Source of the DNA: Bacteroidales bacterium
GTDB taxonomy: Bacteria; Bacteroidota; Bacteroidia; Bacteroidales; WCHB1-69
Length of the DNA: 64,000 nucleotides
Direction of reading: 5' to 3'
NCBI GenBank assembly: GCA_045132235.1
Contig: JBGURX010000020.1
Span: 7,819-71,818, forward strand
Shown here: positions 9,796-37,028 of the stretch, one piece after another
How the letters are laid out: each line of letters begins with the position of its first letter
How positions within the stretch are numbered: position 1 is the stretch's first letter
Made by a program: the position numbers and the translations under genes
The notes under the pieces: generated by a model
Told to the model about the DNA's origin: nothing
The model's input: only the letters and a program-made list of their open reading frames with translations
Databases searched by the model: none

Positions 9796-11631
9796 TCATT
9801 CTGCCGATGTGCCATCACTTTGCAGAGCGCAATACCGGGCATACTCGCCGCCCAAAGCTATCAACTCGTCATGCGAGCCCCGCTCCACGATGCGGCCGCC
9901 CCGCACAAACAGAATTTCATCCGCCCGCCGGATGGTGGAGAGCCGGTGCGCCACCACAATGGTGGTACGTCCTTCCATCAGCCGCTGCAGCGACTGCTGC
10001 ACCATGTATTCCGATTCGGTATCCAACGCGGAGGTAGCCTCGTCCAAGATGAGCACTTGCGGGTTCTGCAGTACTGCCCGCGCAATGCTCAGCCGTTGCC
10101 GCTGCCCGCCCGACAGCATCATGCCCCTATCGCCAATCACCGTGTCATACCCATTTTCCATCTCCATGATGAAGTCGTGCGCCAAAGCCGTCTTCGCCGC
10201 CGCCTCCACCATCTCGCGCGTCACGCCCTCCTTGCCGAAGGCAATGTTGTTATATACCGTGTCGTTGAACAGCGTAATGTCTTGGTTGACGATGCCGAAA
10301 ATACCGCGCAAATCGCTGATTTTGATCTCCCTGATGTCGGTTCCGTCAATGCGAATGCAGCCGCTTTTTACATCGTAAAACCTTGGCAATAAATCCACAA
10401 TGGTCGATTTGCCACTCCCCGATGCGCCCACCAAAGCCATGCTCTTCCCCTTCTGCAACGTGAAACAGATGTCGTTCAGCACCTCCGCACCATTTGTTTG
10501 ATATGCAAAATGTACATGGTCGTACTCAATCTGTCCGTCGAAACGCTTCTTTTCAATCGGTTTCGGCGCCTCTTCGATCACCTCCTCCGCATCGATCACT
10601 TGGAAAATACGGTCTGCCGATGCCATTCCTTTCTGAATCGTATAGTACGATGACACAATGGATTGCGCCGGCGGGATGATACGGGCAAAAATCACAATGA
10701 ACATGATGAGTTTCTCGCCCGTCATGGCCGCATCGGACAATACAAAGTTGCCGCCCAACAGCAGCACAATCACCAGCGCGAGGATGCACAGAAATTCCAC
10801 CAGCGGCGCCCCGATTTCAGTTTTGCGGAAAATACGACGGTTCAGTACATAGAAACGGTCGTTCATCTTCCGGAATCTTTTATCTGCATAATCCACCGCC
10901 GTGTGCCCCTTGATGATGCGCAACCCGCTGATGGCCTCGTCAAACGCAGAGGTCATCCGCCCCAGTATCTGCTGCGCCTCCGACGAATTTTTCTTGATGC
11001 TCTTCCCAATTTTCGCAATCAATAGTCCCGCTGGCGGAAGGATAATCAGGGTAAGGAATGTTAATTTATAACTTATTGAAAATAAAGTTATTAAAAAGAC
11101 AATCACCAAAATAGGATCTCTGAAAAACATCTGCAGACTGCAGACCACCGACCACTCCACCTCCTGCACATCCGACCCGATACGGTTCATGATGTCGCCT
11201 TTTTTCTGTTCATGGTAGAAAGATAAAGGCAGAATGAGCAGTCTGTGATACACATCGCGCCGCAACCCTTGGGAGATGCCTGCCCGTATCGACGCATTGG
11301 CATACAGCCCCAAATATCTAAAGAGGTTGGAAAACAAAGTACTGACAATCATTGTGATGGCAATGAATACGAGCGCTTGGAACTGCCCATGGTCGCGGAT
11401 GATGATACCCATGTAGTAGTAGAAAGTGTCCAAGATGGAACTGGCATTCAGCGTCAGATCCGGCCGCTCGGTCACCGCCGTGCCGTTGCCGAAGAGCACC
11501 GACAGGAAGGGCGCCACCATCGAGAGCGAAAACACCGAGAAAACTGCATAGCAGAGGTTGAAGACAAATATCAGTACGATGTTGGCCTTGAAAGGGGTGA
11601 GGTAACGGAGAATGCGCCGGAACTGCTTCAT
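9796..11631 (-). CDS. ABC transporter permease/ATP-binding protein (MsbA-like exporter)
   Basis: 611 aa. Six-TM N-terminal half, Walker A GASGSGKST, signature LSGGQRQR, Walker B ILILDEATSALD. Confidence 0.85.
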   Translation of the reverse strand: MKQFRRILRYLTPFKANIVLIFVFNLCYAVFSVFSLSMVAPFLSVLFGNGTAVTERPDLTLNASSILDTFYYYMGIIIRDHGQFQALVFIAITMIVSTLFSNLFRYLGLYANASIRAGISQGLRRDVYHRLLILPLSFYHEQKKGDIMNRIGSDVQEVEWSVVCSLQMFFRDPILVIVFLITLFSISYKLTFLTLIILPPAGLLIAKIGKSIKKNSSEAQQILGRMTSAFDEAISGLRIIKGHTAVDYADKRFRKMNDRFYVLNRRIFRKTEIGAPLVEFLCILALVIVLLLGGNFVLSDAAMTGEKLIMFIVIFARIIPPAQSIVSSYYTIQKGMASADRIFQVIDAEEVIEEAPKPIEKKRFDGQIEYDHVHFAYQTNGAEVLNDICFTLQKGKSMALVGASGSGKSTIVDLLPRFYDVKSGCIRIDGTDIREIKISDLRGIFGIVNQDITLFNDTVYNNIAFGKEGVTREMVEAAAKTALAHDFIMEMENGYDTVIGDRGMMLSGGQRQRLSIARAVLQNPQVLILDEATSALDTESEYMVQQSLQRLMEGRTTIVVAHRLSTIRRADEILFVRGGRIVERGSHDELIALGGEYARYCALQSDGTSAE

Positions 11632-12586: not shown

Positions 12587-12880
12587 CTACGACATTTGTT
12601 CAACGGGCATCACAAATGCGCGGATACCTTGCTGCGGCGCGCTGGCATCCAACTTGTGGATTTCATCCATCAACGGCTGTACCTTCTCATCCGGAATGAA
12701 AGTGATAATGGCGGAGTTGAGAGTCGGCCATGCGTGGGTGCCGTAATGCGGCTCGCCAGTCTCATTGCCACGCCCCTGCACCTCTTCCCAGAAGGTGAAT
12801 CCACGGATTTCCAACCGGTCAAGTGCCTCAATCATTTCTCCATAAAATGCTTTGTAAAAAGAGATGAATACTGCTTTCAT
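12587..12880 (-). CDS. Small conserved cytosolic protein (P-II-like size/pattern), function unknown
   Basis: 97 aa, tightly abutting the dehydrogenase gene. No catalytic motif recognised. Confidence 0.5.
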   Translation of the reverse strand: MKAVFISFYKAFYGEMIEALDRLEIRGFTFWEEVQGRGNETGEPHYGTHAWPTLNSAIITFIPDEKVQPLMDEIHKLDASAPQQGIRAFVMPVEQMS

Positions 12881-13327: not shown

Positions 13328-15592
13328 TTATCTTCTGGAAGAGGATGAGCTGCTGGAGTGAGAACCGCTGGAATGTGAGCTACTTGAGGAGTGTGAACTG
13401 CCGCTGTAGCTGCTTCCCGAACGAGATGAAGAGGAACCCGAGTAGGAAGAACTGCTACGGCTTGAGCTACTGGAAGAGCTGGAGGGTCTGCTATAGCTGG
13501 ATGAGCTGCGTGAAGAAGAACTGCTGCTGTTGGACGGTCTGCTGTAACTCGATGAACTGTTAGAGGAATTTGAAGGTCTGCTGTAGCTTGATGAGCTGCT
13601 GGAGGAAGAACTGCTGTTGGAAGGTCTGCTATAGCTGCTGGAAGAATTAGTCGTTCTGTTACTGTTAGAAGGATTGTAGGGATGGCTCAAGCTCGAGTTG
13701 CTACTGCTGTTAGCCGGTCTATTGTAAGAATTGTTGGAGTTGTTGGAAGGACTGCTGTAGCTGGATGAACTATTGTTATTGGCCGGTCTGTTGTAGGAAT
13801 TGCTGGAGTTATTGGAAGGACTGCTGTAGTTGGATGAACTACTGTTATTGGCCGGTCTGTTGTAAGAATTACTGGAGTTGTTGGAAGGATTGCTGTAGCT
13901 GGATGAACTATTGGTATTGGCCGGTCTGTTGTAAGAATTGTTGGAGTTGTTGTAGGAGTTAGCCGGTCTGGCACTGCTATTGTTGTAGTTAGAGGGCAGC
14001 GGGGTGCGGTTATTGTTGCTGGGAGCCGGAGCCGTTACGCTGCTCGGTCGGTTGGAGTTGTTGTTATAGTTGTTCGTGCTGGGAGAGGTTACACGGTTGT
14101 CATTATTGCTCGGAGCAACCATACTGTTGCTGTTAACCCGGCTGGAGTTATTGTCAAGGTTGGGGTTCGTCACACGACTGGCACCATTATTATAGTTCGG
14201 GGTGACCGTGCTGTTGTTGTTCACATTGGGATTGTTCACACGACTGTCGGCGTTGTTGTTGGTCGTCGGAGTGGACGGTTTGTCAACCTTGTTGGAATTG
14301 TTGTTCACGCTGGGATTGTTCACGCGGTTGTCAGCGTTGTTGTTGGTCGTCGTAGTGGACGGCTTGTCAACCCTATTGGTATTGTTGTTCACGCTGGGAT
14401 TGTCCACGCGGCTGTTAGCATTGTTGTTGGTCGTCGTAGTGGACGGCTTGTCAACCCTGTTGGTATTGTTGTTCACGCTGGGATTGTCCACGCGGCTGTT
14501 GGAGTTGTTGTTCGATGTTCTGGAGTAGGGGTTGACATCCTTATTGGAGGAGTTGCTGGAGGCAGTGGAGGCGATGGCATCGTAGCGTTCGTTGAAGCTG
14601 ACAGGTGTCATCGTGCGGGTGGAGGCGATGCTGTTGTGATCGCGGTTGTTATTGTTCACTCCGCCCGTGTTGCCGTAGCCACTGGGACGTTCACCTCTTC
14701 CATTACTACCCGAGTTGGTGGAGGAAGCCGACTCTCTGTGTCCGATATAGAAGGAACCGTTGTGGTCGTAGTTGTTGTGGTAGTAGTTTGCATGACTGGC
14801 GGCGTAGTATCCATCGTGGAATCCATTAAGGTAGCCGTTGTGATATCCGTGGTGGTAGCCGTGGTAATAGCCATGTCCATAGTGGTAACCGTAGTGATAC
14901 GGATGGTGATACCAACCGTAGTGATACGGATTGTAGGGATGATGGCAGCTCCAGCCCCAACCGTAATTGAAACCGTAGTGATAGTAGCCATAATCGTAGT
15001 AGTACGGACGATAGTAGTAGGTCGGCCACCACCAGCTGTAACCGAGGTAAATGCTCACGCCCCAGCATGCAGGATCGTAGCTGTACCAGTAGTTGTTGGT
15101 GAAGTACGGATCATAGTAGCTCCAGCCGTAGTTGCAGCAGGAGTGGAAGCGGCGGATACGGGATGAGTAGTAGTAGTCGTAGTAGCTGTCGTCATCATAG
15201 TAGTAGTTGTTGGTGATGTACGTGTTGCCGTTACCATCAGAATATGAGCTGGAGTTGGAAGAAGTGCCAGCATAATAATTGCCGGTGTTCGGATCATAAT
15301 ACGTGTTGCTGTTGGCATCGTAATACAACCCTGTTTCTTCATCGTAATAATACGTTACATTATTACTATTGTTGGAAGAATTGTTGTAATTCGCCGCATT
15401 GTTATAGTTGCTGGACGAATTATTGGCCGTAGCATTCGAGTTGGAATAACTGGAAGTTACAGGAGCCGGCCTTGTGTATTGAGCATCATTCGAATTGCTA
15501 TAGATGTCATCATAGTAGGTCAATGACTCTAATTTACAAGAAGTTGCCAGTACGGCCAACATAAGGGCGGAAAAATACACTAACTTTTTCAT
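13328..15592 (-). CDS. Extreme low-complexity Ser/Asn/Tyr/His-rich repeat lipoprotein
   Basis: An uninterrupted 754-codon frame starts with MKKLVYFSALMLAVLATSC (lipobox). It continues with N/S/Y-rich sequence, a Tyr/His/Gly/Trp block, 28-aa and 23-aa tandem repeats, and a near poly-Ser tail. Only this frame carries a signal peptide. Confidence 0.6.
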   Translation of the reverse strand: MKKLVYFSALMLAVLATSCKLESLTYYDDIYSNSNDAQYTRPAPVTSSYSNSNATANNSSSNYNNAANYNNSSNNSNNVTYYYDEETGLYYDANSNTYYDPNTGNYYAGTSSNSSSYSDGNGNTYITNNYYYDDDSYYDYYYSSRIRRFHSCCNYGWSYYDPYFTNNYWYSYDPACWGVSIYLGYSWWWPTYYYRPYYYDYGYYHYGFNYGWGWSCHHPYNPYHYGWYHHPYHYGYHYGHGYYHGYHHGYHNGYLNGFHDGYYAASHANYYHNNYDHNGSFYIGHRESASSTNSGSNGRGERPSGYGNTGGVNNNNRDHNSIASTRTMTPVSFNERYDAIASTASSNSSNKDVNPYSRTSNNNSNSRVDNPSVNNNTNRVDKPSTTTTNNNANSRVDNPSVNNNTNRVDKPSTTTTNNNADNRVNNPSVNNNSNKVDKPSTPTTNNNADSRVNNPNVNNNSTVTPNYNNGASRVTNPNLDNNSSRVNSNSMVAPSNNDNRVTSPSTNNYNNNSNRPSSVTAPAPSNNNRTPLPSNYNNSSARPANSYNNSNNSYNRPANTNSSSSYSNPSNNSSNSYNRPANNSSSSNYSSPSNNSSNSYNRPANNNSSSSYSSPSNNSNNSYNRPANSSSNSSLSHPYNPSNSNRTTNSSSSYSRPSNSSSSSSSSSSYSRPSNSSNSSSSYSRPSNSSSSSSRSSSSYSRPSSSSSSSSRSSSSYSGSSSSRSGSSYSGSSHSSSSSHSSGSHSSSSSSSRR
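13712..13972. repeat. 69-bp in-frame tandem repeat, ~3.7 copies
   Basis: Units start at 13712, 13781, 13850, 13919 and (13961) with (A/G)GCCGGTCT. Each encodes SYNRPANNSSSSNYSSPSNNSSN-type 23-aa repeats. Confidence 0.85.
14168..14503. repeat. 84-bp in-frame tandem repeat, 3 near-identical copies plus 1 degenerate copy
   Basis: Units at 14252-14335, 14336-14419 and 14420-14503 differ at only a few positions. Each encodes NSRVDNPSVNNNTNRVDKPSTTTTNNNA-type 28-aa repeats. Confidence 0.85.
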
Positions 15593-15636
15593 AACTTAAT
15601 CTCCTTTCTGTTTGCGGCTGGGTGATATTATTTTTG

Positions 15637-15644
15637 TATTTTTG
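15637..15644 (+). promoter_or_regulatory. -7 box (TATTTTTG) upstream of proS
   Basis: TAnnTTTG match 58 nt upstream of the ATG at 15702. Confidence 0.4.
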
Positions 15645-15701
15645 CAAACTTGATTTTAAGACCACAAAAATACTAAAAAGTTCAAATAGAAAAGGAAAAA
15701 A

Positions 15702-17177
15702 ATGGCAAAAAATTTCACTACACGGGCAGAGAATTATTCGCAATGGTACAATGACATTGTAAAAAAAGCTGACTTGGCAGAAAATTCCGCCGTCAGAGGA
15801 TGTATGGTCATCAAGCCGTACGGTTATGCAATATGGGAGAAAATGCACGACGCATTGGACAAGATGTTCAAGGAGACGGGGCATGTAAACGCCTACTTCC
15901 CGCTTTTCATCCCCAAGTCGTTCCTCAGCCGTGAGGCCGACCATGTGGAGGGCTTTGCGAAGGAGTGCGCGGTCATCACCCACTACCGTCTGAAAAACTC
16001 TCCTGACGGCTCCGGTGTCGTGGTGGACCCTGAGGCCAAATTGGAGGAGGAGCTGATTGTGCGCCCCACTTCCGAGACCATCATCTGGAGTACCTATAAA
16101 AACTGGATCCAGTCGTACCGCGACCTGCCGCTGCTCTGCAACCAGTGGGCCAACGTGGTGCGCTGGGAGATGCGTACCCGTCTGTTCCTCCGTACGGCCG
16201 AGTTCTTGTGGCAGGAAGGCCATACCGCCCATGCCACCGAACAGGAGGCGCGCGAGGAGACCGCCAAGATGCTGAATGTGTATGCTGATTTCGCCGAGAA
16301 TTACATGGCCATGCCGGTGCTTCGCGGCGTGAAGTCCCCCAACGAACGTTTCGCAGGGGCTATCGACACCTACTGCATCGAGGCCATGATGCAGGACGGC
16401 AAAGCATTGCAGGCAGGCACTTCGCACTTCCTCGGTCAGAATTTCGCCAAGGCCTTCGACGTGCAGTTCCTCAACAAGAACAACAATCTCGAATATGTAT
16501 GGGCCACCTCGTGGGGCGTTTCCACCCGACTGATCGGTGCCCTCATCATGACCCACTCCGACGACAACGGACTGGTGCTTCCTCCGAAGCTGGCTCCGAT
16601 TCAGGTGGTGATTATTCCTATTTATAAAAATGATGAGCAGAAAGCCGCTATCGGTGAGAAAGTTCAGGTGCTGATGAACAAGTTGAAGGCAAAGGGCATT
16701 TCTGTGAAATACGACGATGACGATTCACAGCGTTCGGGCTGGAAGTTCAACGAGTATGAGCTGAAGGGCGTTCCGGTGCGCGTGGCCATCGGTCCCCGTG
16801 ATTTGGAGAACAACCAAGCCGAGGTGGCCCGCCGCGACACCCTCGAAAAGGCCAACTATCCGTTGGATACTTTGGATGCAACCATCGAAGGACTGTTGGA
16901 AGAGATCCAGAAGAACCTGTTCCAGCGTTCGCTGGAGTTCCGCGACAGTAATATCCGCAAGGCCGACACTTGGGAGGAATTTGTGGATATTTTGGACAAC
17001 AAGTCTGGGTTTGTGTATGCCCATTGGGACGGTACCACAGAGACCGAAGAAAAGATCAAAGAGCTGGCGAAGGCCACGATCCGTTGCATCCCGTTCAACA
17101 ACCCGCTGGAGGATGGCAAGTGCATCTTGACGGGCAAGCCCTCCAAACAGCGTGTGGTGTTCGCAAGAGCATACTAA
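15702..17177 (+). CDS. proS: Proline--tRNA ligase (archaeal/eukaryote-like class II form)
   Basis: 491 aa. The N-terminus [22 protein letters not shown], the class II motifs ([15 protein letters not shown]) and the C-terminal ...RVVFARAY are typical of the short ProRS form. Confidence 0.9.
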
Positions 17178-22838: not shown

Positions 22839-24647
22839 TTATACATCATCCAGGGCAAAGTCCAAAAAATCCATGCCCCATTCGTTTTCGCTTATGTCTT
22901 GGTATTTTTCATTTTTATTTCGGAATGCAATTCTCCTGCTTTCCTCCCGATAATCAAATACAAAATGACAAGAGCTACACAGAAGATAATTCAGATTTTT
23001 TACTCCTCTCCCGAGACTGCCTTCACAATTTATGCATAACATACTCTTTTTCAGTCTCTCCCCATTTTCACCAAGTTCTTTTCTTAGTTTTTCTACTTCA
23101 TTTTTGATGGCCTCCCTATCCAATCGGCCACGTTTTTTGAAATGTTCATCGGCTTGCAGCTTGTCGAAGTCAAATCCAATGTTCGAATCTGGGTAGCGGA
23201 GAAAACGATAATGGTATTTTTCGTCAAATGAAAGGGTGGACGATTGAAAGTACTGGACATACTCCTTCAGTTTTTGCGGGTAAGTGTAGGTATAGTGTGT
23301 CTGATAGAAATACTGCACCAGCAGCAGTTTCCGAAGGAAACCACCCACGCGTTCCGCACTGTCCGCATCCAGAGGATTGATATCGACAATTCTACCGGAG
23401 CGTTTGCCTTGCTCGGAATACGAGAAAACATACAAATCCTCTTTCTTTAATTCAGACTCTGCCGTTTGTGTCTCATTGCCCACCACCACAATGCGTTTTT
23501 TCAGGCTTTCGCCCACTTTGAGTTCGAATATCCCATGCTCCGTTATGTTTAATTCCATCGAAGTCCAGTGCGGGTGTGTCGCCTTCCAGCCAGAATAAGT
23601 GCCTTCTATCGTATATTTCCAATATTCCTTCAAGACATACACAATCAATGCTTCTGCATAGCCTCGGATTCCGATCATCACGAGCTGTTCTGTCCGAAGC
23701 TTTTCCTCTTCGGCAGCTGTCGGATTCACATTGCACAGCTTGTCCCATAATGCGCTCAAATACCGGTAATGCTTGTGATTGACCATGACATTGGTGTCCC
23801 TGTATTCAATGCTTTGCACCGTATATTGGTTCACAAGCCCGAACAATTCATTCTTTTGCAGCTGTGACAACTGCTTGTATAGTTGGACCAGCACTTCTTC
23901 CGTCTCATTCAGTGTTTTGGAATACTTGCTGTCAGCAGAATAATATTCATCAGAATAGGTGCTCCCTATAAGTTTCAGATTCCTATCAATCTTTTCATGC
24001 CATCCCTTTTCATACTCCTTGTCCTGCAGCAGTTGTCTATATTGTTTCAAAAACTCCTTGATATCCTGTACCTCCTTGACTCTGCCCGACAAATAGACCA
24101 GCGTCCGTTTCACGAACGCAACCGCAATCTGGTTTTCATACACATTATAATTGAGCTCCAACTCCTCATTCAGGATTTTACGGGGCTTGAAATCGACAAT
24201 GCTCTTCGAAATCCAATCCTCCGTGTGCGAGGCAAGATGCTGATAGCTCCTGTTCGGCAGTCTTTTGGCTCTAACGACATTCACTTTTTCAATGGTTCTC
24301 TCCAAAAGATAATGCGGATTTCTGAAAATTTCTTTAATATGGGAAACATTTTCGTTCAATTCTTTCTCAAAATCGTTGAGGAACAGCTTTCTTTTAATCC
24401 GCTGGATAATCGGGTTAACGGCAAATTCATTGGAAGGAGATTTTTCAATAGAGGCATACAACTCAAGAAAAAGTTCCTGCACACTCTTGTTTTCCTCCAA
24501 AAGGATTTCCTGACGGATAACCTTTTTTGTGGGAAAAGTGGCGTAGGTCAAATCGCGTCCCTCGCAGGTGAATCTTCCGAAATCCATCACTTCCGGAAGA
24601 TCCTTTTCCTCAAGAAATTGCCCCTTGTACCGGTCAAATACTTTCAT
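22839..24647 (-). CDS. McrC/DUF2357-like protein with C-terminal zinc ribbon (CnuC-like candidate)
   Basis: 602 aa. Its ATG overlaps the stop of the upstream AAA+ gene (TAATG). The segment RNPHYLLERTIEKV...LNYNVYENQIAVAFVKRTL resembles the DUF2357/McrC N-region. There is a possible degenerate PD-(D/E)xK core (E365...E375-L-K377) and a CxxC-15-CxxC (C538/C541/C557/C560). The assignment rests largely on synteny with the McrB-like ATPase. Confidence 0.5.
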   Translation of the reverse strand: MKVFDRYKGQFLEEKDLPEVMDFGRFTCEGRDLTYATFPTKKVIRQEILLEENKSVQELFLELYASIEKSPSNEFAVNPIIQRIKRKLFLNDFEKELNENVSHIKEIFRNPHYLLERTIEKVNVVRAKRLPNRSYQHLASHTEDWISKSIVDFKPRKILNEELELNYNVYENQIAVAFVKRTLVYLSGRVKEVQDIKEFLKQYRQLLQDKEYEKGWHEKIDRNLKLIGSTYSDEYYSADSKYSKTLNETEEVLVQLYKQLSQLQKNELFGLVNQYTVQSIEYRDTNVMVNHKHYRYLSALWDKLCNVNPTAAEEEKLRTEQLVMIGIRGYAEALIVYVLKEYWKYTIEGTYSGWKATHPHWTSMELNITEHGIFELKVGESLKKRIVVVGNETQTAESELKKEDLYVFSYSEQGKRSGRIVDINPLDADSAERVGGFLRKLLLVQYFYQTHYTYTYPQKLKEYVQYFQSSTLSFDEKYHYRFLRYPDSNIGFDFDKLQADEHFKKRGRLDREAIKNEVEKLRKELGENGERLKKSMLCINCEGSLGRGVKNLNYLLCSSCHFVFDYREESRRIAFRNKNEKYQDISENEWGMDFLDFALDDV

Positions 24648-26962
24648 TACTTTTCTTTTTTCTGGATTTCCTCATCAAGAAAACCAAGAGCTATTTGGGG
24701 CTCTTCTTTATTAAATCCATTCTTAAACAACTCTTTATACTTCTCCTTGAAAGCTGTCAGGCTGCCTTTATCCAAATCATACCTGTTTTTCAAGGTTCTG
24801 AAAAGGCGGCTGGTAACCAAATGGTCAGCTGCTTCGGCAAGTTTCCCGCCACAAGCACGATAGGCGCAAATAAACCGTTCCGCCTGGTTCTCAAAACGAT
24901 TACCTATGCCGATACCCTTGGCTGCCAACATATCCTTCAATTCAGCATTGTCAATAAAATTCTTAAATGTTGTGAATTCCCCTTTATGAGCATTAGAGGA
25001 GTCCTTGAATTTTTCTTCCAACCAAGAATAGGTGACTACATAGTCATTAATTTTACCATTTCCCACCTTGGCATAATTCTTGGGCATCTCCATCAAGTTG
25101 GAGCGATCGTAGGTCTTCGGAGCGAACTCAAGCGTGGTTTCATCGTGATTTGCCGTGCCGATGAACCGCACATTTTTGGGGACGCGCAATTTTCCTGTCC
25201 CATCATCTTTATTAACTAACCTTGGAAGAGTATCAAGGGGGGCATTTATCCTGATATACCGTTCTTGCTCCGACTGCTCCAGAAGGGAGAGGAAATCGGC
25301 GAAGTAGTGCTCCGGACGGGAAAGGTTCATCTCATCAAGGATAATCAAGAAGAGGGTATCCTTGTATTTGGGCTGATTGGCCGCATACAGCGCCTGGAAG
25401 AAATCTGTCTCATTGTACTTGTGGTCAAACGAATTGTAGTAGCCCATAAGGTCCATGTTGTCGCGCCAACCGGATTGTACCGCACAAATCCGGTAGGGCT
25501 CCCCGTTTTTCCCTTGAAATTCCGATATGTCTGTCAGTGCTTTGGCAAATTCACGCGGCAGACTGGTTTTTCCGGTACCGCTGATGCCCTGCAGGATCGT
25601 GATGGGTGACATATACAGTCCGGCAATGAAGGTCCGGATGGTTCTTTCATCATAGTAGAAATTTTTGCCTGCCATCTTTATTTGGACGAATTGCACCAAC
25701 TTCTCAAGGTCATCCGGGGCGTTCCCTTCTATCATTGTGTTCTGCATTGCAGCATCATTGTCCATTTTGTTGGCGGTTTCAAACGCTTCACCCGTCTTGT
25801 CCCGTTCCCCCTTCAGTTGGTCAATGGTGACATGCAGATCGTCAATTGTTCTGCGCAATGATGCCTCACGAGCTTCCGCCGATTCGATTTTGTTTTTATA
25901 GGATTCCAATTCGATAATATACGAATCATTATTGTGAAGCAATGCCTTAAGTTGCATGATTTCTTTCTCGTCAACTTGATTTTTAAGTTCTTGCACCTTT
26001 TGCTGAAGTATTTGCTTTTCCTTCTGCAATTGATCCACTTCCCGTTGTTCGGGTCGTTCGTTCAACTCATTTTCAAGTTTTTCCAAACGATCTTTCATCG
26101 CCTGGTATTCAGGGAGCATTTGATCAAGTTCAACATCCATAAATGCCGCTTGGATAGCTTCGATTTTTCCTTGAAGATTGTCATTTGTTTGAACAAGTCG
26201 CTTATTCTTTGACTGCTCCATTTCAAGCGACCTTCTTGTCTGTTCCAACACTCCTTCATACTTTTCCTCATACTTTTCCCTAAGATCCTCTTCGAATAAT
26301 TCCTTACCTGCCTCAAACTTTTTCTGTTCCCTTTCCAGTTCCATCTGCTGTTTTTTCAGCTCGGACGCTTCATCCACCTTACTGAAAATATCCTCCAAGT
26401 TTTTTTGGTGCAATTCATTCAACTTTGTCAAATACGCTTCTGTGTCGGTGAACACCTTTTCGCCAGACTCCCGCAGAGTGCCTATAAGATGGTTTATTAC
26501 CTCGGTGTATTCTCCGTTGTCGAGGGCTAATTCCCGCTCGAGGACATTTTTTTCCCTTTTGTTAAGTACATACAGTTTGTCCTTCATCTTATTTTTTGCT
26601 TCATCCACACTTTCCCGGTCAGATTGAAGTGCAGTTTCCTCTGTCTGCTTCTTTTCATTCCATTTTGATTGCTCATCCTCAATTTTCTTCTGCAGGCTTT
26701 GCAGCTGACTGCGTATTCCCAGCAACTTTCTCCAGTAGTCATCAACAGCATTTTTTTCTTTCGCTCTATCGAACTCCTCCTGATCTTTTTGTGGCAGCGA
26801 TTCAACCACATCGACCTTATTCTCCTCACACTCTTGTTGCAATTCGCGCTGCAATTCATCAGCATTCTGAATCTGCTCTTCATTCGGTGCAGCAACCTTT
26901 GCCATATTTTGCGTTTTTTGCGAGGCACTCTGTTTCTTGTTGTGATTGTTTTTTTTACCCAT
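24647..26962 (-). CDS. Coiled-coil N-terminal domain fused to McrB-type AAA+ NTPase (CnuB-like candidate)
   Basis: 771 aa. Residues ~25-395 are E/K/Q/L-rich heptad-like sequence. Walker A GISGTGKTS (459-467; nt 25562-25588), Walker B LFLIILDEMNL (nt ~25322-25356), and a McrB-like FIGTANHDETT segment (compare the MNxxD motif of McrB). Confidence 0.75.
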   Translation of the reverse strand: MGKKNNHNKKQSASQKTQNMAKVAAPNEEQIQNADELQRELQQECEENKVDVVESLPQKDQEEFDRAKEKNAVDDYWRKLLGIRSQLQSLQKKIEDEQSKWNEKKQTEETALQSDRESVDEAKNKMKDKLYVLNKREKNVLERELALDNGEYTEVINHLIGTLRESGEKVFTDTEAYLTKLNELHQKNLEDIFSKVDEASELKKQQMELEREQKKFEAGKELFEEDLREKYEEKYEGVLEQTRRSLEMEQSKNKRLVQTNDNLQGKIEAIQAAFMDVELDQMLPEYQAMKDRLEKLENELNERPEQREVDQLQKEKQILQQKVQELKNQVDEKEIMQLKALLHNNDSYIIELESYKNKIESAEAREASLRRTIDDLHVTIDQLKGERDKTGEAFETANKMDNDAAMQNTMIEGNAPDDLEKLVQFVQIKMAGKNFYYDERTIRTFIAGLYMSPITILQGISGTGKTSLPREFAKALTDISEFQGKNGEPYRICAVQSGWRDNMDLMGYYNSFDHKYNETDFFQALYAANQPKYKDTLFLIILDEMNLSRPEHYFADFLSLLEQSEQERYIRINAPLDTLPRLVNKDDGTGKLRVPKNVRFIGTANHDETTLEFAPKTYDRSNLMEMPKNYAKVGNGKINDYVVTYSWLEEKFKDSSNAHKGEFTTFKNFIDNAELKDMLAAKGIGIGNRFENQAERFICAYRACGGKLAEAADHLVTSRLFRTLKNRYDLDKGSLTAFKEKYKELFKNGFNKEEPQIALGFLDEEIQKKEK

Positions 26963-26967
26963 GGTGA

Positions 26968-28485
26968 TTATTGTTTGGTGATATATTCATTTATAAATTC
27001 TATGATAAAGTCGTAGTAAGATTTAGCCTTTTCCTTTGTAAGGTTTTCGTCAGGGCCATGTGTCTGCCGCCCGCCTATTGTTCCATGTGCACAGGTGTTG
27101 TTCCTCCAGTGTGCTATTTCAATCAGAAGTTCAATTTTCCCGTTCAGCATGGAAAACAGTGGGGAGTTTTTGTCCAATTCATATGTTAGGGCAAAGGCAG
27201 CCAAATGCTGGATGATGCCTTGAGGATTTTTTATCTTCCCTTTCATCGCATTCAGCAATTGATTCGGCACAGAAGTCTCCCTTGAGAACAATTTGGATTT
27301 GTAAATATTCTTTATGGCTTGCTTCTTGTCGTTTGTTGAATCCGTATTGTCATCGGGATAGCGGTTTACCAACTCTTCATAAACGGATTGCCTATTGTCC
27401 CTATCGTGCTTGAATACATTCTCGAAGGCAGAACAGATGTACAAAATCATTTCCTTTGCAGAATTTTCCCATTTTTGTGGGTTGTCTTGGATGTGAAGAT
27501 GCTTCTCTATAATCTGCTCACAGTAGCCTTGTAGATTTTTATCCAAATTATAAAAATCAGTAGAAAAACTATCGCACACGACCTCATCAATCCTGTTTTT
27601 CAGATCCTGGTTATATTCCTCCAATCTCTTATTACGGGAGGTCTGTGCATCCTCGAACCTTTTCTCAATCTCACTGAGCAACGTTTTGTTTTCCTTTGTG
27701 TTAAGATAAAATTTCAGTTGCACATTGTCGCCATAGCCAAAGGGATCCAGCACTTTCCAGTCCGGATTGTAGATTCCGTCTTCACCCTCCAGATAGATAT
27801 AGGTACACACCCAAACCTTTTCGGGACGATTGGTCGGGATGTAGCGGATGCTTAGTTTCGGAATCGTTGTTTCCACGGTGTCCTCCGACATCGAGTCAAA
27901 CTGTTTGCTGTAGGTGTCTTTTATGATTTCCGCAATTTGTTTTTCCGACAAGGCGGATTTAGTTTTTTGCCGGAAGACGATCTCGTCCAAATAGAACACG
28001 GAGTCATCCCGTTCATCACCATCCCCCTTTTCGCCTCTGATGATGCGTGGCTTTGGATCGGACGTGACATCCGGGCGGACGATATTTTCCACATAGTAGG
28101 GATAGTATCCCTCGGTGTCAATATACTGAAACAGGTAGCCTATCCTTCGTTCATTCGGGTTGATGACCAGTCCGTCTATTTCCGACAATTTATTCTTTCC
28201 TTCCTCAGAGAGGGCGCCATACTGGGTGAGTAACCCTTTTCGCTGCAGGGCATTCGCCACTATCTCGATGAGTTTTTCATCCAGCCCTGTCATTTCCGCT
28301 ATTCTTTGTGTTGCCATCCCCGGTTTCGCCTTGAACCGCAGGACGGTCTTTTCAAAGAAATCCAATCCCGAAGAAAACGCACATGTTTCAATACGGTACA
28401 TGTACATGGGTATCGCCACCCTCAGAAATCTGCGGGATGGGCTTGCCGTAGTATTGCAAATAATGTTATTGTATTCTATTTCCAT
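26968..28485 (-). CDS. wHTH-containing protein with C-terminal HEPN-like RNase domain
   Basis: Track ORF 26968..28575. I prefer the ATG at 28485 (MEIEYNN..., a 20-nt overlap with the helicase gene end); alternative ATGs are at 28407 and 28401. The wHTH-like segment is MATQRIAEMTGLDEKLIEIVANALQRKGLL. The C-terminal WRNNTCAHG (nt 27085-27105) fits the HEPN Rx4-6H motif with the common RN...AHG flavour. Confidence 0.55.
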   Translation of the reverse strand: MEIEYNNIICNTTASPSRRFLRVAIPMYMYRIETCAFSSGLDFFEKTVLRFKAKPGMATQRIAEMTGLDEKLIEIVANALQRKGLLTQYGALSEEGKNKLSEIDGLVINPNERRIGYLFQYIDTEGYYPYYVENIVRPDVTSDPKPRIIRGEKGDGDERDDSVFYLDEIVFRQKTKSALSEKQIAEIIKDTYSKQFDSMSEDTVETTIPKLSIRYIPTNRPEKVWVCTYIYLEGEDGIYNPDWKVLDPFGYGDNVQLKFYLNTKENKTLLSEIEKRFEDAQTSRNKRLEEYNQDLKNRIDEVVCDSFSTDFYNLDKNLQGYCEQIIEKHLHIQDNPQKWENSAKEMILYICSAFENVFKHDRDNRQSVYEELVNRYPDDNTDSTNDKKQAIKNIYKSKLFSRETSVPNQLLNAMKGKIKNPQGIIQHLAAFALTYELDKNSPLFSMLNGKIELLIEIAHWRNNTCAHGTIGGRQTHGPDENLTKEKAKSYYDFIIEFINEYITKQ

Positions 28486-31400
28486 ATTTTGAGCTTGGAT
28501 CTGAAAACGTCTTGTAAAATTCAAAAAGGCCTTCCACGTATTTTTGGGCGAATTCGTCTTCAAACATTTGGGCATCGCCCACCACGATGATCATTTTCCG
28601 AGCGCGGGAAAAAGCGACATTCAGCCTGTTTTCCACTGTCAGGAACCCGAAAACCTTGCCGGGGTTTTCGTCCGTCCTCTGGATCTCATTGGAGCGCACC
28701 GTACTCAGGATTACGATGTCAAATTCCTTGCCCTGGAAGGAGTCCACGGAACCGATCCTCAATTTTTCGCGGCCATCCGCTGTCTCTTTGTATTTATCGG
28801 CAATGTCGTATTCTCCTGTTGCCGTTTTCTTCGCATATCCAGCATCAGATGCTTCTTTATACAGGGATGTGACCTGTTGAGCGTAAAACGTGATGATGCC
28901 TACACTCAGGTTCTCGAACTCAGGGTCTTTCTCCATTTCCTTCAGCAAGGCGAAAACCCGTTTGGCTTCGGCAGGCCGGCTCTTGCTTTTTCCTCCGAGC
29001 TCTTTCCCCGACTGTTTCGGCACATTGCAGAACACTCCCACCTTGTCCTTTGCCCATTTGAGCTGGAGACGATGCTGTTTTGCCTCAGCCTGCTCATTCC
29101 ATCCCATTCCCGGCTGAAGTTCCCCATTGTAGTACAGCCTGCTGATAAAATCGCCGATGGCTGGATGCATACGGAACTGCGCTTTCAATGTGATGCAGCG
29201 GGGGATGCCACTTTTTTCCATGTTTCTGAAAATGATTCCGAAAAGGGATTCCTGCAGTTTTTTCTTTGCTTCCGCCTGCCTCATCTCTTCGGAATAGGTG
29301 GCGGCCGTCTCTTTGGCGATAGACTCTTCCAAAAGATGAGGCAGCTGTTTCTGGTCACCGACAAGGATAATGCGCTCTGTCGCCTTGGTCATTGGTATGA
29401 GGAGGTCCAGGGGGTTCGAGCGGGCCGCCTCTTCCAGAACGACATTGTCGAAATAACTGTACTCTCTCATAGTATAGCTGCCCGACACCTGGTTGGTGGC
29501 TGCAATACTTTCCCCGTAATTCACAATCGACTCCCTGATGTAGCCGGCATCTGCCAGGTCTCCCAAAATCTCTTCCAAGACAGAGGTAAGGAACGTATCT
29601 TCGTCCTCGTAGTCCAAAGACTCCTTTTTCCGTGCCCACGAAATCGCCTCATCCATCCAGCACTTCAAGGAAGCATTGTCGCTGATGTCAATCTCATTAC
29701 TCTCCTCGAGTATGCGTGCCAAGTACTTGTTTTTCATCTCCTCCAAACGAGGAAGGAAGTCAGGCTCCGCATACTTCATTTCCGGCGGTGCCGATTCGAT
29801 AAATGCACGGTCATTGTCATCAATATCCATTTTCTTGCTGAAACGAAGGAGGTTTTTGTATCCGTCATCATCGTAGGCTTCCGGCGTGGTGCGGAGACTT
29901 TTGACAAGGCCTTCCACCTTGTCCCGTTCGGAGTCCTTAAAGCCCGATGGTGCAAAATTGCTTTTCCATGTGCTGACGAGCGCATCATTCTCAATAATAC
30001 CCGCACGAACCCAATCGTCTATTTGCTTGGTTATATCCGATTTGTTATTCTCTTTTTCAAGAATTTGCTTGAGTTCCACCAGCTTTTTGGACAAGCGCGA
30101 CGACTCAGTTTTAGGGGCAAGTCTTTGAAAAGAATCATTCACATGGTTCCTTATGTCCTCGACCAGCTTATCTTCAGGTTTGAAGCTATTCTGCGTTTCC
30201 TTGCCGACTTTTATCGTGGGGAGCCCTAGTGTAGAAACTTTGGAGGCGATATGTTCAACCGTATCGTTTTGGAAAGCCGAGACGAGGATGAGTTTCCGGT
30301 CAGCGCATTTCTTCTTGGAGTCGCGTTCTGCAATCTCCAATAACCGGTCGCAGATTGCCGCCACCACTGTTGTCTTGCCTGTCCCGGGAGGGCCTTGTAT
30401 GATGGCAATGTCCGGTGTGTTGACCGCAATTCTGACCGCCTCTTCCTGGTCGGGGGTCAACCCGTCGATACCGAACTTTTTCCTGAGAAAGGAGCGGGTG
30501 CGCTCAGTCAGCGTCTTTTCCGAGCGGGACTTTTTCCCCATACTTTCAACCTTGTTTTCAATAGCGAAAAGAAGGTTGGTGGTCAGAAACCTCCTTTGGT
30601 TACGGAGGAGCGAGACCGCCCTCTCCCTTCGTTTGAACACGACCTCATCCCCTTTTGTCGAAAGGACAAGCCTGCCTTCCGATGGAAGGGTGTATGTATC
30701 GTCATCAAACTCCACCTCGTCGTTGGATCCTAATAACCTTGTCTGCTCTTCGTTCAATTTAACCCGATACAGTTTTGCATCACCCTTTTGTTCCTCTGCT
30801 CCCTCTTTCACCAATTCAAACGAGGCATATCGAAGTTCATCCCTGTGTTCCTTAAACACAGCTCTCTGCTCTTCGGACAAATCCAACTTGACTCTTGATG
30901 TCCCATTTTTCAGGAATCGCCGATCCCTGAATTTCACCTCTCCCAGATCCGATTTCAAATTTTCCACACAATCCCGCTCAATTTTCGAATATCGCTCCCA
31001 TAAGTTGATAAGTGTTTCCCCTTTGGTTTCGCTTTCGCGTATGCTCTCGTAGGTCTGCCGCATTTGAGATGCCTCAACAAAACGGATCTCGTTGTAGAAG
31101 ACAATCTGAAGGTCTGCTAAATCGTCGATGTTTTTGGGCAAACCCTTCTTTGCCTTCTTCTTTTTCACCACCCACTTCTCATTCTCCACTGCCACATCAA
31201 TGGAGCCATGGAGTCCGTACAATGTGAATGTAGTTGACCCGTTTATGTAGGTCTTCACAAGCAGAGCCTCCATTGCACCTGCATCCCACACAAATTCCCT
31301 ATGGAGTTGTTCCGGTATTTTCTCAATCTTTTCACTCCGGTTGGATTGGATGTACTGATCCCCAAAACCGATTTCAAAATCGCTTTCAAAATTTATTATC

Positions 31401-31735
31401 TTGCTGCATGGAAGAAATTGGATTTTCGCGCTTTGTGTATTTTCGTCGAAAAAGTCAATCCAGAACAGATAGGAGTTCAGTTCTTCGTTTGGTGATGGCG
31501 TGACGGATGATAGTTTATCCGGGTCATCCATCTTCATCCGCATAGGCATCGTCTTCCTGTTATTTCCTTCTTCAAGAATGTCAGCGGAGAACAAAATCTC
31601 GCTTCCTTCAATTTTGATGAAAGAAAGAAGCTGGGGCGGCTTTAGCCAACTGACATCATCTGAAATCAGCTGACCCGTGAGGAAGTTGCGGTAATTTTCC
31701 TCTGGAAAATGTTTGAAAATATCTGCTATTACCAT
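28466..31735 (-). CDS. Upf1/DNA2-like superfamily 1B helicase with ~440-aa uncharacterised N-terminal region (CnuH-like candidate)
   Basis: 1089 aa. Motif I IQGPPGTGKTT (nt 30368-30394), motif II ILVGDQKQLPH, then FRMHPAIGDFISRLYY, VDSFQGKEFDIVILS and NVAFSRARKMIIVVGD. This is the AAA_11/AAA_12 pattern. Confidence 0.85.
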   Translation of the reverse strand: MVIADIFKHFPEENYRNFLTGQLISDDVSWLKPPQLLSFIKIEGSEILFSADILEEGNNRKTMPMRMKMDDPDKLSSVTPSPNEELNSYLFWIDFFDENTQSAKIQFLPCSKIINFESDFEIGFGDQYIQSNRSEKIEKIPEQLHREFVWDAGAMEALLVKTYINGSTTFTLYGLHGSIDVAVENEKWVVKKKKAKKGLPKNIDDLADLQIVFYNEIRFVEASQMRQTYESIRESETKGETLINLWERYSKIERDCVENLKSDLGEVKFRDRRFLKNGTSRVKLDLSEEQRAVFKEHRDELRYASFELVKEGAEEQKGDAKLYRVKLNEEQTRLLGSNDEVEFDDDTYTLPSEGRLVLSTKGDEVVFKRRERAVSLLRNQRRFLTTNLLFAIENKVESMGKKSRSEKTLTERTRSFLRKKFGIDGLTPDQEEAVRIAVNTPDIAIIQGPPGTGKTTVVAAICDRLLEIAERDSKKKCADRKLILVSAFQNDTVEHIASKVSTLGLPTIKVGKETQNSFKPEDKLVEDIRNHVNDSFQRLAPKTESSRLSKKLVELKQILEKENNKSDITKQIDDWVRAGIIENDALVSTWKSNFAPSGFKDSERDKVEGLVKSLRTTPEAYDDDGYKNLLRFSKKMDIDDNDRAFIESAPPEMKYAEPDFLPRLEEMKNKYLARILEESNEIDISDNASLKCWMDEAISWARKKESLDYEDEDTFLTSVLEEILGDLADAGYIRESIVNYGESIAATNQVSGSYTMREYSYFDNVVLEEAARSNPLDLLIPMTKATERIILVGDQKQLPHLLEESIAKETAATYSEEMRQAEAKKKLQESLFGIIFRNMEKSGIPRCITLKAQFRMHPAIGDFISRLYYNGELQPGMGWNEQAEAKQHRLQLKWAKDKVGVFCNVPKQSGKELGGKSKSRPAEAKRVFALLKEMEKDPEFENLSVGIITFYAQQVTSLYKEASDAGYAKKTATGEYDIADKYKETADGREKLRIGSVDSFQGKEFDIVILSTVRSNEIQRTDENPGKVFGFLTVENRLNVAFSRARKMIIVVGDAQMFEDEFAQKYVEGLFEFYKTFSDPSSKYGNRIQ

Positions 31736-31738
31736 ACG

Positions 31739-33133
31739 TTAGTCAATGGTTAAAACTCTTTGTGGTTGATCGCAATGTTCCACAGAAATCATCATTTTTT
31801 CCTTGGTCTCTTTCTTTGCGATGCGAATTCTGACGGGTCCGTTAAATTCTCTGACGTATTCTCCTGACCTTTTGTATATATAAAAACGATGATTGTCCTG
31901 CGGAGTCAATACAAGAATGTCTTCTCTATCACCCGATTCTACTGAAATGAGCAAGAAAGGTTCCGCAGGGTGTGACGGCGCGATAAAATGAGAGGCGTTG
32001 ACCATTCTGGGTGTGCTCGTGGTGACAACGAGTTCCTCATACACTTTCTGTTGCAGCTGGAAACTGCCTTTCCCGTTTTCACACATCTTGTGGGTAACCT
32101 CATCATAATATGGAATCTGCTCCCAACGTCTCATCTGGATTTTGTATGCCTTTTCAATTATCTGCCCGCATAATGGACACTCCGTCCTATGTCCATACAG
32201 GAAATCCATGTTGCATTCAGGATTCGGACAGTGCACTAATTCGTTAACGGCCCTGTGCAGTTCATCATACCATTCGCCCATAGAGGGTCTTTGTATCGGG
32301 TCGTTGAGCCCCTCCTCGAACGTCCGACGGAAAAGTTCGTGCACTCTTGGCGACATCATGATATCGGACGGGATAGCCCTAGTCAGAGCATTGCGAGTGT
32401 CGTTCCTATTATCCACCCACGGGAGCTTTCCAGCCAGAGCGTCCTCCTCAAGTTCCGGCTCTCCCTCGTCAACATAGTCCCCTATAAGTGGATGATTGGT
32501 GGTCAGCACCATAAATGCCAGCACGGCAAAGGAAAAACAGTCCGACGAGGGCGTATTGGGAGCCAATTTGTTCACAATCTCCGGGGCGCCGAACCGCGGC
32601 GTGTATATATTCTGGACCACGCTCGACTTATAGCGGAGGTTGTCCAAATCAATCAGGAAAATATTGTTTTTTTCCGGCCGTTGCGAGACAAACACGTTGT
32701 CAGACGACAGATCGCAATACGCCAGTCCTTTTGCGTGCAGTGAGCGCAACGCAGAGGCCAATTCTCTCAGCAACGCATACCGTTTGCGCAACCCTCCTGT
32801 CTCAAGAAACCATTTTTGAAAGTCACTGTCACATTGCCCACGATATATCCACTCGGTCAACGGTATCATTCCGGAAGCGAATTCGGCAATGTACCCGCTT
32901 CGTGGAGCGGTGATTTCCCATAATGGGCACGCGTATATGTTTTTGTCCAAATGCAAACTGATGAGGAACTGTATTTTCGACCTGAGGAGGAGATCATCAT
33001 GATTGCCAAAGAACAACTTGGCGATATACCGGCCGCCCTGAAGGAGGTATGTGCGTCCCTGACCACCTTCGGCAAGGGCTTTCTCAATCTGATATGTATT
33101 TCCTTTATTGTCAATTACTTCACCCATAATCAT
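31739..33133 (-). CDS. Ser/Thr protein kinase with zinc ribbon and C-terminal beta-rich extension (TerY-P kinase-like)
   Basis: 464 aa. G-loop-like EGGQGRTY, K39 (YIAKL), catalytic loop YCDLSSDN (D141, nt 32711-32713), DLD (162-164), APE (183-185), and CPNPEC...CPLCG (C302-C322). Its ATG overlaps the PP2C stop (ATGA). Confidence 0.8.
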   Translation of the reverse strand: MIMGEVIDNKGNTYQIEKALAEGGQGRTYLLQGGRYIAKLFFGNHDDLLLRSKIQFLISLHLDKNIYACPLWEITAPRSGYIAEFASGMIPLTEWIYRGQCDSDFQKWFLETGGLRKRYALLRELASALRSLHAKGLAYCDLSSDNVFVSQRPEKNNIFLIDLDNLRYKSSVVQNIYTPRFGAPEIVNKLAPNTPSSDCFSFAVLAFMVLTTNHPLIGDYVDEGEPELEEDALAGKLPWVDNRNDTRNALTRAIPSDIMMSPRVHELFRRTFEEGLNDPIQRPSMGEWYDELHRAVNELVHCPNPECNMDFLYGHRTECPLCGQIIEKAYKIQMRRWEQIPYYDEVTHKMCENGKGSFQLQQKVYEELVVTTSTPRMVNASHFIAPSHPAEPFLLISVESGDREDILVLTPQDNHRFYIYKRSGEYVREFNGPVRIRIAKKETKEKMMISVEHCDQPQRVLTID

Positions 33134-37013: not shown

Positions 37014-37028
37014 TTATCTAATACTTTA

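Follow-up and report, generated by a model that had tools for sequence, protein, structure and literature searches.

An open reading frame (ORF) of extreme composition in a Bacteroidales contig raises the question of whether such a sequence encodes a real protein, and if so, of what kind. The ORF is located in a 64-kb stretch of contig JBGURX010000020.1, referred to here as the window, and all coordinates follow window numbering. It runs uninterrupted through 754 codons and a stop on the minus strand (positions 13328-15592) and begins with MKKLVYFSALMLAVLATSC. An earlier note, based on the letters of the window, described a 754-residue lipoprotein with a lipobox Cys at this position, and the ORF list agrees. 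The composition is dominated by Ser (190 residues, 25.2%), Asn (147, 19.5%) and Tyr (87, 11.5%), whereas His (24 residues) and Trp (9) are fewer and Gln occurs once. The comparative data show that the ORF is a real, expressed-type gene and that it belongs to a large, apparently Bacteroidota-specific family of fixed architecture. This conclusion follows from hundreds of homologues, a core with a ratio of nonsynonymous to synonymous substitution (dN/dS) of 0.04, insertions and deletions that stay in frame, and conserved termini.

The closest relative is present in a Bacteroidales metagenome-assembled genome (MAG) from sheep rumen (locus L001), where the products of proS and secA are 96% and 94% identical, respectively, to those encoded in the window. 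The orthologues in L001 (854 residues) and L003 (869 residues) share the start and the frame with the window protein, correspond to it almost residue for residue over roughly 300 N-terminal residues and have the same end, ...SSHSSGSHSSSSSSSRR (...SSRR). The tails of the three proteins differ only by in-frame gains and losses of repeats; hence, the repeat number, which the earlier note proposed to compare among relatives, does vary. Identity between the window protein and L001 is 65% in the best aligned segment, which falls within residues 1-476. Over residues 85-290, dN/dS relative to L001 is 0.043 (Nei-Gojobori), and the value for the adjoining proS is 0.029. The codon usage is native in that the preference for C-ending codons agrees with that of the core genes in the window. 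Moreover, all six Ser codons occur in the poly-Ser tail, which is thus not a simple DNA microsatellite; it seems that the amino acid composition is what is maintained there.

The extreme low complexity, the tandem repeats at the DNA level and the absence of the exact 754-residue protein from a collection of 15 billion proteins are features that a spurious ORF over non-coding repeat DNA would also display. Comparison with L001, L003 and the wider family revealed no broken frame and did reveal a conserved ORF in relatives, so that neither of these refuting outcomes named in the earlier note applies. The homologues, the dN/dS value, the in-frame indels, the use of six Ser codons and the native codon bias already refute this explanation, and we give it practically no weight.

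To what extent is the family distributed? The full-length query matches 36 proteins, and a profile of the conserved aromatic core (see below) matches 444. With the same core profile, a filter-free HMMER search of 1.84 billion representatives at 50% identity returned 980 clusters with a cut-off of E ≤ 1e-3, of which 603 have E ≤ 1e-10 and 191 have E ≤ 1e-30. Counting one genome per GTDB species, relatives are present in at least 440 species genomes; the locus counts given below refer to the best 80 loci among these. Nearly all of the 80 are from Bacteroidota MAGs, covering Bacteroidales of rumen, gut and termites, Lentimicrobiaceae, Flavobacteriales, and entries titled "Bacteroidota bacterium" from fresh water or soil. 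Among the matches listed, those with names are all "hypothetical protein" and often "partial". In keeping with the earlier note, which recognised no described family, Pfam-A 2025 and NCBIfam 20.0 assign the window protein to no family at E ≤ 1, including the YXWGXW repeat, the glycine zipper and the C-terminal domain of T9SS (type IX secretion system). Two distant family members likewise lack an NCBIfam match, and the precomputed Pfam field is "-" for all listed homologues (the 36 full-length matches and the best 120 of the 444 core-profile matches). A search of the PDB with the core profile (A3) gave no match, and the full-length profile (A1) retrieved only low-complexity ribosomal and RYBP matches. 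Literature searches on Ser-rich, prion-like or FadL-linked Bacteroidota lipoproteins likewise gave no account of the family. Collectively, these searches define a large family that spans the phylum and for which Pfam, NCBIfam, the PDB and the literature searched offer no description.

The family as we define it combines a lipobox Cys with the motif (Y)YDD[IV]Y and a set of core motifs (DDYYDYxYxxR[IL][RK]RF ... [YF][YF]TNxYWY ... WGxSIYxGY ... YYxNSYD..YYG[HP]R); its tail is polar and its C-terminus basic. The window protein has every one of these features, as seen in alignments A1, A2 and A3 and in its C-terminal Arg-Arg. At the level of the locus, the definition adds divergent adjacency to proS, which the window shows, and a FadL/TodX-family barrel gene directly downstream, which it lacks (see below). 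A lipobox-like Cys is present in 56 of 63 family proteins (the window copy and 62 from related loci), and A1 shows C19 to be nearly invariant; by pattern match, the signal of the window copy, MKK-LVYFSALMLAVLA-TS-C, has the basic n-region, the hydrophobic h-region and the lipobox of a bacterial lipoprotein processed by signal peptidase II. The (Y)YDD[IV]Y motif is positioned 6-12 residues past the Cys, and in A1 its residues D28 and Y31 do not vary, while D29 hardly varies. The core comprises, in order, GNTYITNNYY, DDYYDYxYxSRIRRFH, GYYDPYYTNxYWYDYxPxxWGxSIYLGYNWWxPSYY, three to five G-[YW]-x-x repeats and YYxNSYDxNSYYYG[HP]R. The corresponding region in the window protein reads GNTYITNNYY..DSYYDYYYSSRIRRFH..YYDPYFTNNYWYSYDPACWGVSIYLGYSWWWP.. 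followed by (G-Y-x-x)n and YYHNNYDHNGSFYIGHR. This core (aa 112-290) consists of 35% Tyr, Trp and Phe (46% with His included) and is net acidic. After the core, a short predicted helix with the consensus SFxQxY includes the nearly invariant Y337. The charge is distributed unevenly along the window protein, with a net charge of -7 for residues 20-111, -13 for residues 20-290 and +23 for residues 291-754.

Does the core fold? AlphaFold2 gave a mean predicted local distance difference test score (pLDDT) of 40.5 and a predicted template modelling score (pTM) of 0.19 with a 24-sequence alignment, and 49.2 and 0.26, respectively, with a 64-sequence alignment. Certain elements recur across the models: β-hairpins at approximately aa 114-128 and 165-181, a short helix at approximately aa 137-143, and the SFNERYD helix that follows the core (pLDDT 60-77). 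A Foldseek search with the better core model against the PDB returned fragments only (E > 6). On the basis of this modelling, the core appears to have no confidently predicted autonomous fold. The statement in the earlier note that the protein has "no ordinary globular segment" is therefore right inasmuch as AlphaFold gives no fold, but it overlooks a core of some 180 residues that is conserved across the phylum and is under purifying selection as strong as that on proS. Similarly, the description in the earlier note of almost entirely low-complexity and repeat sequence needs correcting, as residues ~112-290 form a strongly conserved core. This core is evidently functional, and a segment that is constrained yet not foldable on its own is most simply explained if it folds on a partner, at a membrane interface or on itself.

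The tails follow other rules. Across the family they range from 50 to more than 450 residues, consist of ~60% Ser, Thr, Asn, Gln, Gly and Pro, and are net basic (median K+R 14%, D+E 7.6%). They are of low complexity and are disordered as judged by charge-hydropathy and composition. The dominant residue depends on the lineage: Asn makes up 4-24%, and other tails are rich in Thr, Gln, Pro or Gly. Hence, the Asn and His richness of the window protein is local to its lineage, and the prion-like reading raised in the earlier note rests on Asn richness, a trait of this lineage; with regard to a yeast-prion-type N/Q-rich domain, Gln accounts for 0.1% and Asn for 19.5% of the window protein. What recurs is a Y-[SN]-x-P motif (consensus S-Y-S-[RKA]-P-S), found mostly in the tail's distal half, with 2.13 occurrences per protein vs 0.25 in composition-shuffled tails, an 8.6-fold enrichment. 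The tails have a Ser/Gly-rich end, which terminates in Arg-Arg in 45 of 59 proteins from the loci. Among 163 diverse members the last residue is Arg in 120 and Arg, Lys or His in 139.

The repeat anatomy of the window protein is as the earlier note described it. Tandem Repeats Finder (TRF) identified an 84-bp unit (91% matches), corresponding to the 28-aa NSRVDNPSVNNNTNRVDKPSTTTTNNNA repeat, and a 69-bp unit (91% matches), corresponding to the 23-aa SYNRPANNSSSS repeat; the final ~110 residues are ~70% Ser with a periodic SYSRPS. The tail carries 11 copies of Y-[SN]-x-P, with motif positions 554-623 in the 23-aa repeat block. With 754 residues, the window protein is longer than any of the 163 diverse members (maximum 635 residues), and only the close relatives L001 and L003 are longer. 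The window clade has lengthened its tail by in-frame tandem duplication, and the 28-aa repeat is a lineage-specific expansion. The features of the ORF and its surroundings are collected in Table 1.

Table 1. Location of the lipoprotein gene, its segments and adjoining elements (window numbering).
Feature	Position	Strand	Basis
Whole ORF, lipoprotein of unnamed Bacteroidota family	13328..15592	-	ORF list, homologues, dN/dS
Signal peptide and lipobox, aa 1-19, MKKLVYFSALMLAVLATS/C	15536..15592	-	Sequence reading, family Cys
Post-anchor motif YYDDIY, aa 26-31	15500..15517	-	Alignment A1, position table after Cys
Acidic N/S/Y-rich spacer with YYD motifs, variable, aa 32-111	15260..15499	-	Poor alignment, length differs across family
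Aromatic core, conserved, aa 112-290	14723..15259	-	Alignments A1/A2/A3, dN/dS, profile search, composition
Linker, aa 291-345, ending in SFNERYD short helix (~aa 333-343)	14558..14722	-	SFxQxY consensus, predicted helix
84-bp (28-aa) tandem repeat, x3.6	14214..14512	-	TRF
69-bp (23-aa) tandem repeat, x3.5, with Y-[SN]-x-P motifs (SYNRPA / YSSPS)	13713..13952	-	TRF
Poly-Ser / SYSRPS tail, aa 641-754, Arg-Arg end, net charge +10	13331..13672	-	Composition
Divergent intergenic region with proS, 109 bp	15593..15701	.	Sequence, -7 motif scan, TRF 8-bp x2
proS (prolyl-tRNA synthetase), divergent neighbour	15702..17177	+	ORF list, tblastn
Putative lipoprotein, 139 aa	12899..13318	-	ORF list

The genes that flank the lipoprotein gene are also conserved. 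In 70 of the 80 loci, proS adjoins it upstream in divergent orientation (tblastn), which bears out the suggestion in the earlier note that orthologues be sought next to proS; further loci retrieved by exact look-up have the same arrangement according to Pfam calls. The gap between the two genes is 109 bp in the window, and its median over 67 loci is 112 bp. Matches to the Bacteroidetes -7 motif TAnnTTTG are present on both strands of the 109-bp region, and we infer promoters from these motif matches. The matches include an exact tandem duplication, TATTTTTG-TATTTTTG, at 15629-15644 (plus strand), 57 and 65 nt upstream of where proS starts, and a single TATTTTTG on the opposite strand, 72 nt upstream of the lipoprotein start. 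A scan for sigma-70 promoters and terminators gave counts not above the shuffled expectation, and its consensus is of the wrong type for Bacteroidota.

Downstream, and on the same strand, a gene for an outer membrane barrel of ~485 residues follows directly in 63 of ~72 assessable loci, as revealed when the neighbouring ORFs were clustered all against all; on seven contigs the sequence stops too soon for an assessment. In 60 of these 63 loci the lipoprotein and barrel genes are 16-192 bp apart (median ~45 bp). The barrel in L007 matches Pfam PF03349 (Toluene_X; OMPP1/FadL/TodX) with 33 bits relative to a cut-off of 29.7, and PF03349 is precomputed on many of its homologues, which carry source names such as "OmpP1/FadL family transporter". 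A profile of 40 barrel sequences (A4) matches TbuX (E 4.9e-5) and PorV (E 0.009) in the PDB; the NCBIfam PorV/PorQ score is sub-threshold (41 bits vs a cut-off of 90). That the barrel is BamG was considered and rejected, since A4 matches no BamG chain at E ≤ 10. A third conserved gene in the operon was likewise rejected: the ~262-aa proteins encoded after the barrel gene in L009 and L081 are unrelated.

In the window, the gene for a putative lipoprotein of 139 aa (MNTRIFCIITLSITTLASC..., ending in acidic DFDYEIWEDNFDYDEFD) stands where most other lineages have the gene for the FadL-like barrel. It starts 9 bp downstream of the lipoprotein gene, with which it is probably co-transcribed. The 139-aa protein has no match in Pfam or NCBIfam, and among the related loci its gene is conserved only in L001-L003.

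Other observations concern the wider locus. Directly beyond proS, on its far side, a ~230-aa protein without a Pfam match is encoded in a cluster of 11 non-Bacteroidales loci (e.g., L081 3675-4367, L083 3668-4357, L086 2278-2970 and L087 2716-3402); it is a possible additional neighbour conserved with the module. The contigs of L015 and L021, titled Oscillospiraceae, and of L050, titled Bifidobacterium, show the typical Bacteroidota arrangement of proS, lipoprotein gene and FadL-barrel gene; they are probably mis-binned or mislabelled. The MAG UBA1205 has two copies of the lipoprotein gene, L031 (DBXT01000030) and L032 (DBXT01000044), each with its own divergent proS, and both proS products are ~75% identical to that of the window. 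Either the pair has truly been duplicated or the bin is mixed.

On which side of the outer membrane might the protein reside? Bacteroidota lipoproteins destined for the surface carry acidic residues after the lipidated Cys (PMC12578637). The window protein (C-KLESLT) has one acidic residue in this region, most family members have none (e.g., C-STANFA), and the maximum among the six positions after the Cys is one; the commonest residues at +2 to +7 are S/K, T/L, G/A, S, F and A/T. The window protein thus lacks the signal for surface export, and without it the family is predicted not to be flipped to the surface. Judged from the sequence, the lipoprotein most likely faces the periplasm. Moreover, the Bacteroidota O-glycosylation sequon D-(S/T)-(A/I/L/V/M/T), of which the earlier note had seen few, is absent from the 754 residues, where 1.4 are expected from the composition, and across the family the median is 0 and the maximum 2. 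The lack of both export signal and sequons weakens the surface mucin reading that the earlier note had entertained.

Taken together, we tentatively favour, at slightly less than an even chance, a reading in which the family constitutes outer membrane lipoproteins with an aromatic head at or with the FadL-like barrel and a disordered tail that serves as a periplasmic tether or spacer. The lipidated Cys would anchor the protein in the outer membrane such that it faces the periplasm, placing the aromatic, acidic head at the membrane. There, the head may dock on, or fold against, the cognate FadL-like barrel, which in most lineages would be dedicated to it and produced from the same transcript; this docking is inferred by analogy with the known systems discussed below. 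The disordered basic tail would reach out from the membrane and serve as a flexible spacer or tether, with its Y-S-x-P motifs and Arg-Arg end contacting a partner or an anionic envelope polymer. In the window lineage the tail would have been lengthened by in-frame tandem duplications and have drifted toward Asn and Ser, with the barrel gene no longer adjacent. In a stronger version, to which we assign a low probability, the head, rich in Tyr and Trp and folded only conditionally, would be clamped at the barrel and the long, basic, disordered tail would form a periplasmic polymer brush or a condensate driven by Tyr-Arg contacts, the whole being a phylum-wide outer membrane module that had gone unrecognised.

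Several points weigh against this reading. An adjacent barrel gene is absent from nine of the assessable loci, which include the closest relatives of the window (the window clade L001, L002, L003, L005, L006, L029 and L033, and the termite-gut clade L012 and L028); the downstream genes in these nine are unrelated, and tblastn found no FadL/TodX-type barrel anywhere in the 64-kb window. The orientation is deduced solely from the missing acidic export signal, and the conserved DD at +10/+11 could conceivably be a displaced version of it. The odd composition, and not conditional folding, may be why AlphaFold fails. For the conserved linkage to proS, the shared divergent promoter region is the only account. 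Finally, look-ups of cluster members and contigs for a cultured host gave only MAG and metagenome records, named "hypothetical protein".

Other explanations were considered. A tail with 60-75% Ser, Thr, Asn, Gln, Gly and Pro could form a surface-exposed, mucin-like brush, if the protein is flipped or the tail is threaded through the FadL-like barrel, and could act as a hydrophilic, possibly glycosylated coat. Bacteroidota have hundreds of surface lipoproteins, a role in holding surface proteins is known for the FadL-like barrels BamG and PorV (PMC12578637, PMC12611786), and in most loci a gene for a barrel of this type is directly downstream. We nevertheless regard the brush as rather unlikely: of the acidic residues of the export signal, the window protein has one and most members none, the sequons counted above are zero in the window protein with a family median of 0, and no glycosyltransferase is conserved in the neighbourhood. 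Might the protein self-associate? This is the prion-like or phase-separation idea of the earlier note in a refined form, and it can be combined with the tether reading. Contacts between Tyr and Arg "stickers" constitute the phase-separation grammar of FUS-type proteins, and a Tyr-rich acidic head combined with an Arg-bearing basic tail could yield a condensate, a gel or an amyloid-like layer at the membrane. The aromatic content of the head, its net charge opposite to that of the tail, the basic bias of tails throughout the family and a core that lacks a predicted autonomous fold despite a dN/dS of 0.04 would all suit such an envelope matrix. However, the Asn richness is not conserved, Gln is nearly absent from the window protein, and the lipid anchor together with the conserved pairing with a barrel gene suggests a stoichiometric complex more than a bulk phase; the likelihood of a matrix is, in our view, low.

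The remaining alternative is that the protein is a divergent accessory of a known machine, either a BamH-like subunit on a BamG paralogue in the β-barrel assembly machinery (BAM) or a T9SS-style cargo with a PorP/SprF/PorV-like barrel. The lipoprotein/FadL-like gene pair mirrors the putative BamH2-BamG2 operon (PMC12578637), and the barrel does show the weak, sub-threshold resemblance to PorV/PorQ noted above. However, the best match of the barrel is TbuX and not BamG, the lipoprotein profile matches nothing in the PDB except spurious low-complexity proteins, and the family has no export signal, whereas BamH-K carry one. Furthermore, Pfam and NCBIfam detect no T9SS C-terminal domain, and the protein carries a lipoprotein-type signal peptide. 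We therefore consider membership in either machine very unlikely.

These systems are still instructive as parallels. In the Bacteroidota BAM complex, the FadL-like BamG holds the lipoprotein BamH via the conserved BamH N-terminus, and the BamG2-BamH2 paralogues (Bt1785-Bt1786) are encoded in a putative operon; the pairs described are Bt4367/Bt4306, Bt1785/Bt1786 and Fjoh_1412/Fjoh_0823 (PMC12578637, PMC12611786). As in BamG-BamH, the lipoprotein described here is paired with a 14-strand barrel of the FadL family, and both partners are widespread in Bacteroidota. The docking element of BamH is the conserved N-terminus next to its lipid anchor, and a likeness to this is what we propose for the proS-linked family. 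The similarity is one of organisation, however, as neither partner is similar in sequence, and profiles A1 and A3 match no BamH chain in the PDB. BamH is also folded, surface-exposed and equipped with an acidic export signal, whereas the proS-linked family has neither the signal nor a predicted fold and carries a disordered tail of 200-500 residues.

In T9SS loci, a cargo gene is followed by the gene for its cognate PorP/SprF-type barrel. The order of a protein and then a FadL-superfamily barrel (PorP/SprF-like or PorV), the conserved C-terminus and the weak PorV/PorQ resemblance are shared with the present family. Unlike T9SS cargo, the family has a lipoprotein-type signal and no detected folded C-terminal sorting domain, and its barrel scores far below the PorV/PorQ cut-offs. 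LpoB, with a disordered linker, and Lpp, with a C-terminal Lys, are outer membrane lipoproteins of Proteobacteria that span the periplasm. The family resembles them in that the N-terminus carries a lipid anchor for the outer membrane, a region that is extended or disordered reaches away from the membrane, and the C-terminal end is basic, a feature that in Lpp is functionally important. It differs in the lack of homology, in a tail that is 4-10 times longer and in the absence of a folded effector domain after the linker. Moreover, the C-terminal Lys of Lpp is attached covalently to peptidoglycan, whereas the proS-linked family ends in Arg-Arg.

Outside these groups, a comparison can be made with FUS-like prion-like, phase-separating proteins and with the His/Gly/Tyr-rich structural proteins of squid beak and Nereis jaw, which share with the family Tyr-rich polar low complexity, an Arg-bearing region, G-Y-x-x periodicity and, in the window lineage, His/Gly/Tyr blocks. 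In contrast to these proteins, the present one is a secreted, lipid-anchored protein of bacteria with hardly any Gln, and its Asn/His richness is lineage-specific. The Ser-rich repeat glycoproteins of Gram-positive bacteria (Fap1, GspB and SraP) are also envelope proteins with very long Ser-rich repeats, but the family has no LPXTG anchor, no evident accessory Sec/glycosyltransferase locus, a different repeat chemistry and another phylum. In this context, a single gene (1,264 aa) beyond proS accounts for the one SecA homologue seen in the window; it is adjacent in one related locus only, and judged by its size it is taken to be the housekeeping copy.

That a Bacteroidota lipoprotein is encoded with a FadL-type barrel is already known, and FadL-like barrels have recently been found to be docking platforms for lipoproteins in BAM and T9SS. 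The present family adds another conserved lipoprotein and FadL-barrel gene pair, one that has never been named and comprises at least 600 well-supported sequence clusters. What is new is its architecture: an unfoldable hyper-aromatic core, a tail conserved in its physics, the Y-S-x-P motif, the terminal Arg-Arg and the fixed linkage to proS. The core is one-third aromatic and no less constrained than an aminoacyl-tRNA synthetase, yet AlphaFold cannot fold it, and the tail keeps only its physical character, its motif and its last two residues. If the stronger version of the tether reading is true, the module would set the spacing of the envelope or tether the outer membrane to peptidoglycan, which in Proteobacteria is the job of Lpp; we know of no Lpp equivalent in Bacteroidota. 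The family profile and the synteny signature make the protein testable in tractable hosts that carry the gene. In addition, these data illustrate that extremely low-complexity ORFs in Bacteroidales MAGs, many of them "partial" due to assembly breaks in repeats, can be genuine conserved genes.

The window contains other genes of interest. On the minus strand, five consecutive genes at 22839-33133 have a GC content at third codon positions (GC3) of 0.50-0.57 vs ~0.7-0.8 for most other window genes examined. They encode proteins of 602, 771 and 535 residues without a Pfam match, a 1089-aa AAA_11/AAA_12 helicase and a 464-aa protein-kinase-like protein, and the block may be horizontally acquired or a defence island. 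A gene at 12587-12880 (minus strand) encodes a 97-aa P-II-like "transporter-associated" protein of the PG0541 family (NCBIfam equivalog, 117 bits); it is followed by a 319-aa ORF and then by a 611-aa ABC transporter at 9796-11631 (minus strand), and L001 has the same set. Finally, at 35226-38822 (minus strand) the gene for an [FeFe]-hydrogenase large-subunit protein adjoins that for a NuoF-like flavoprotein, a pair that is consistent with an anaerobic gut or rumen organism.

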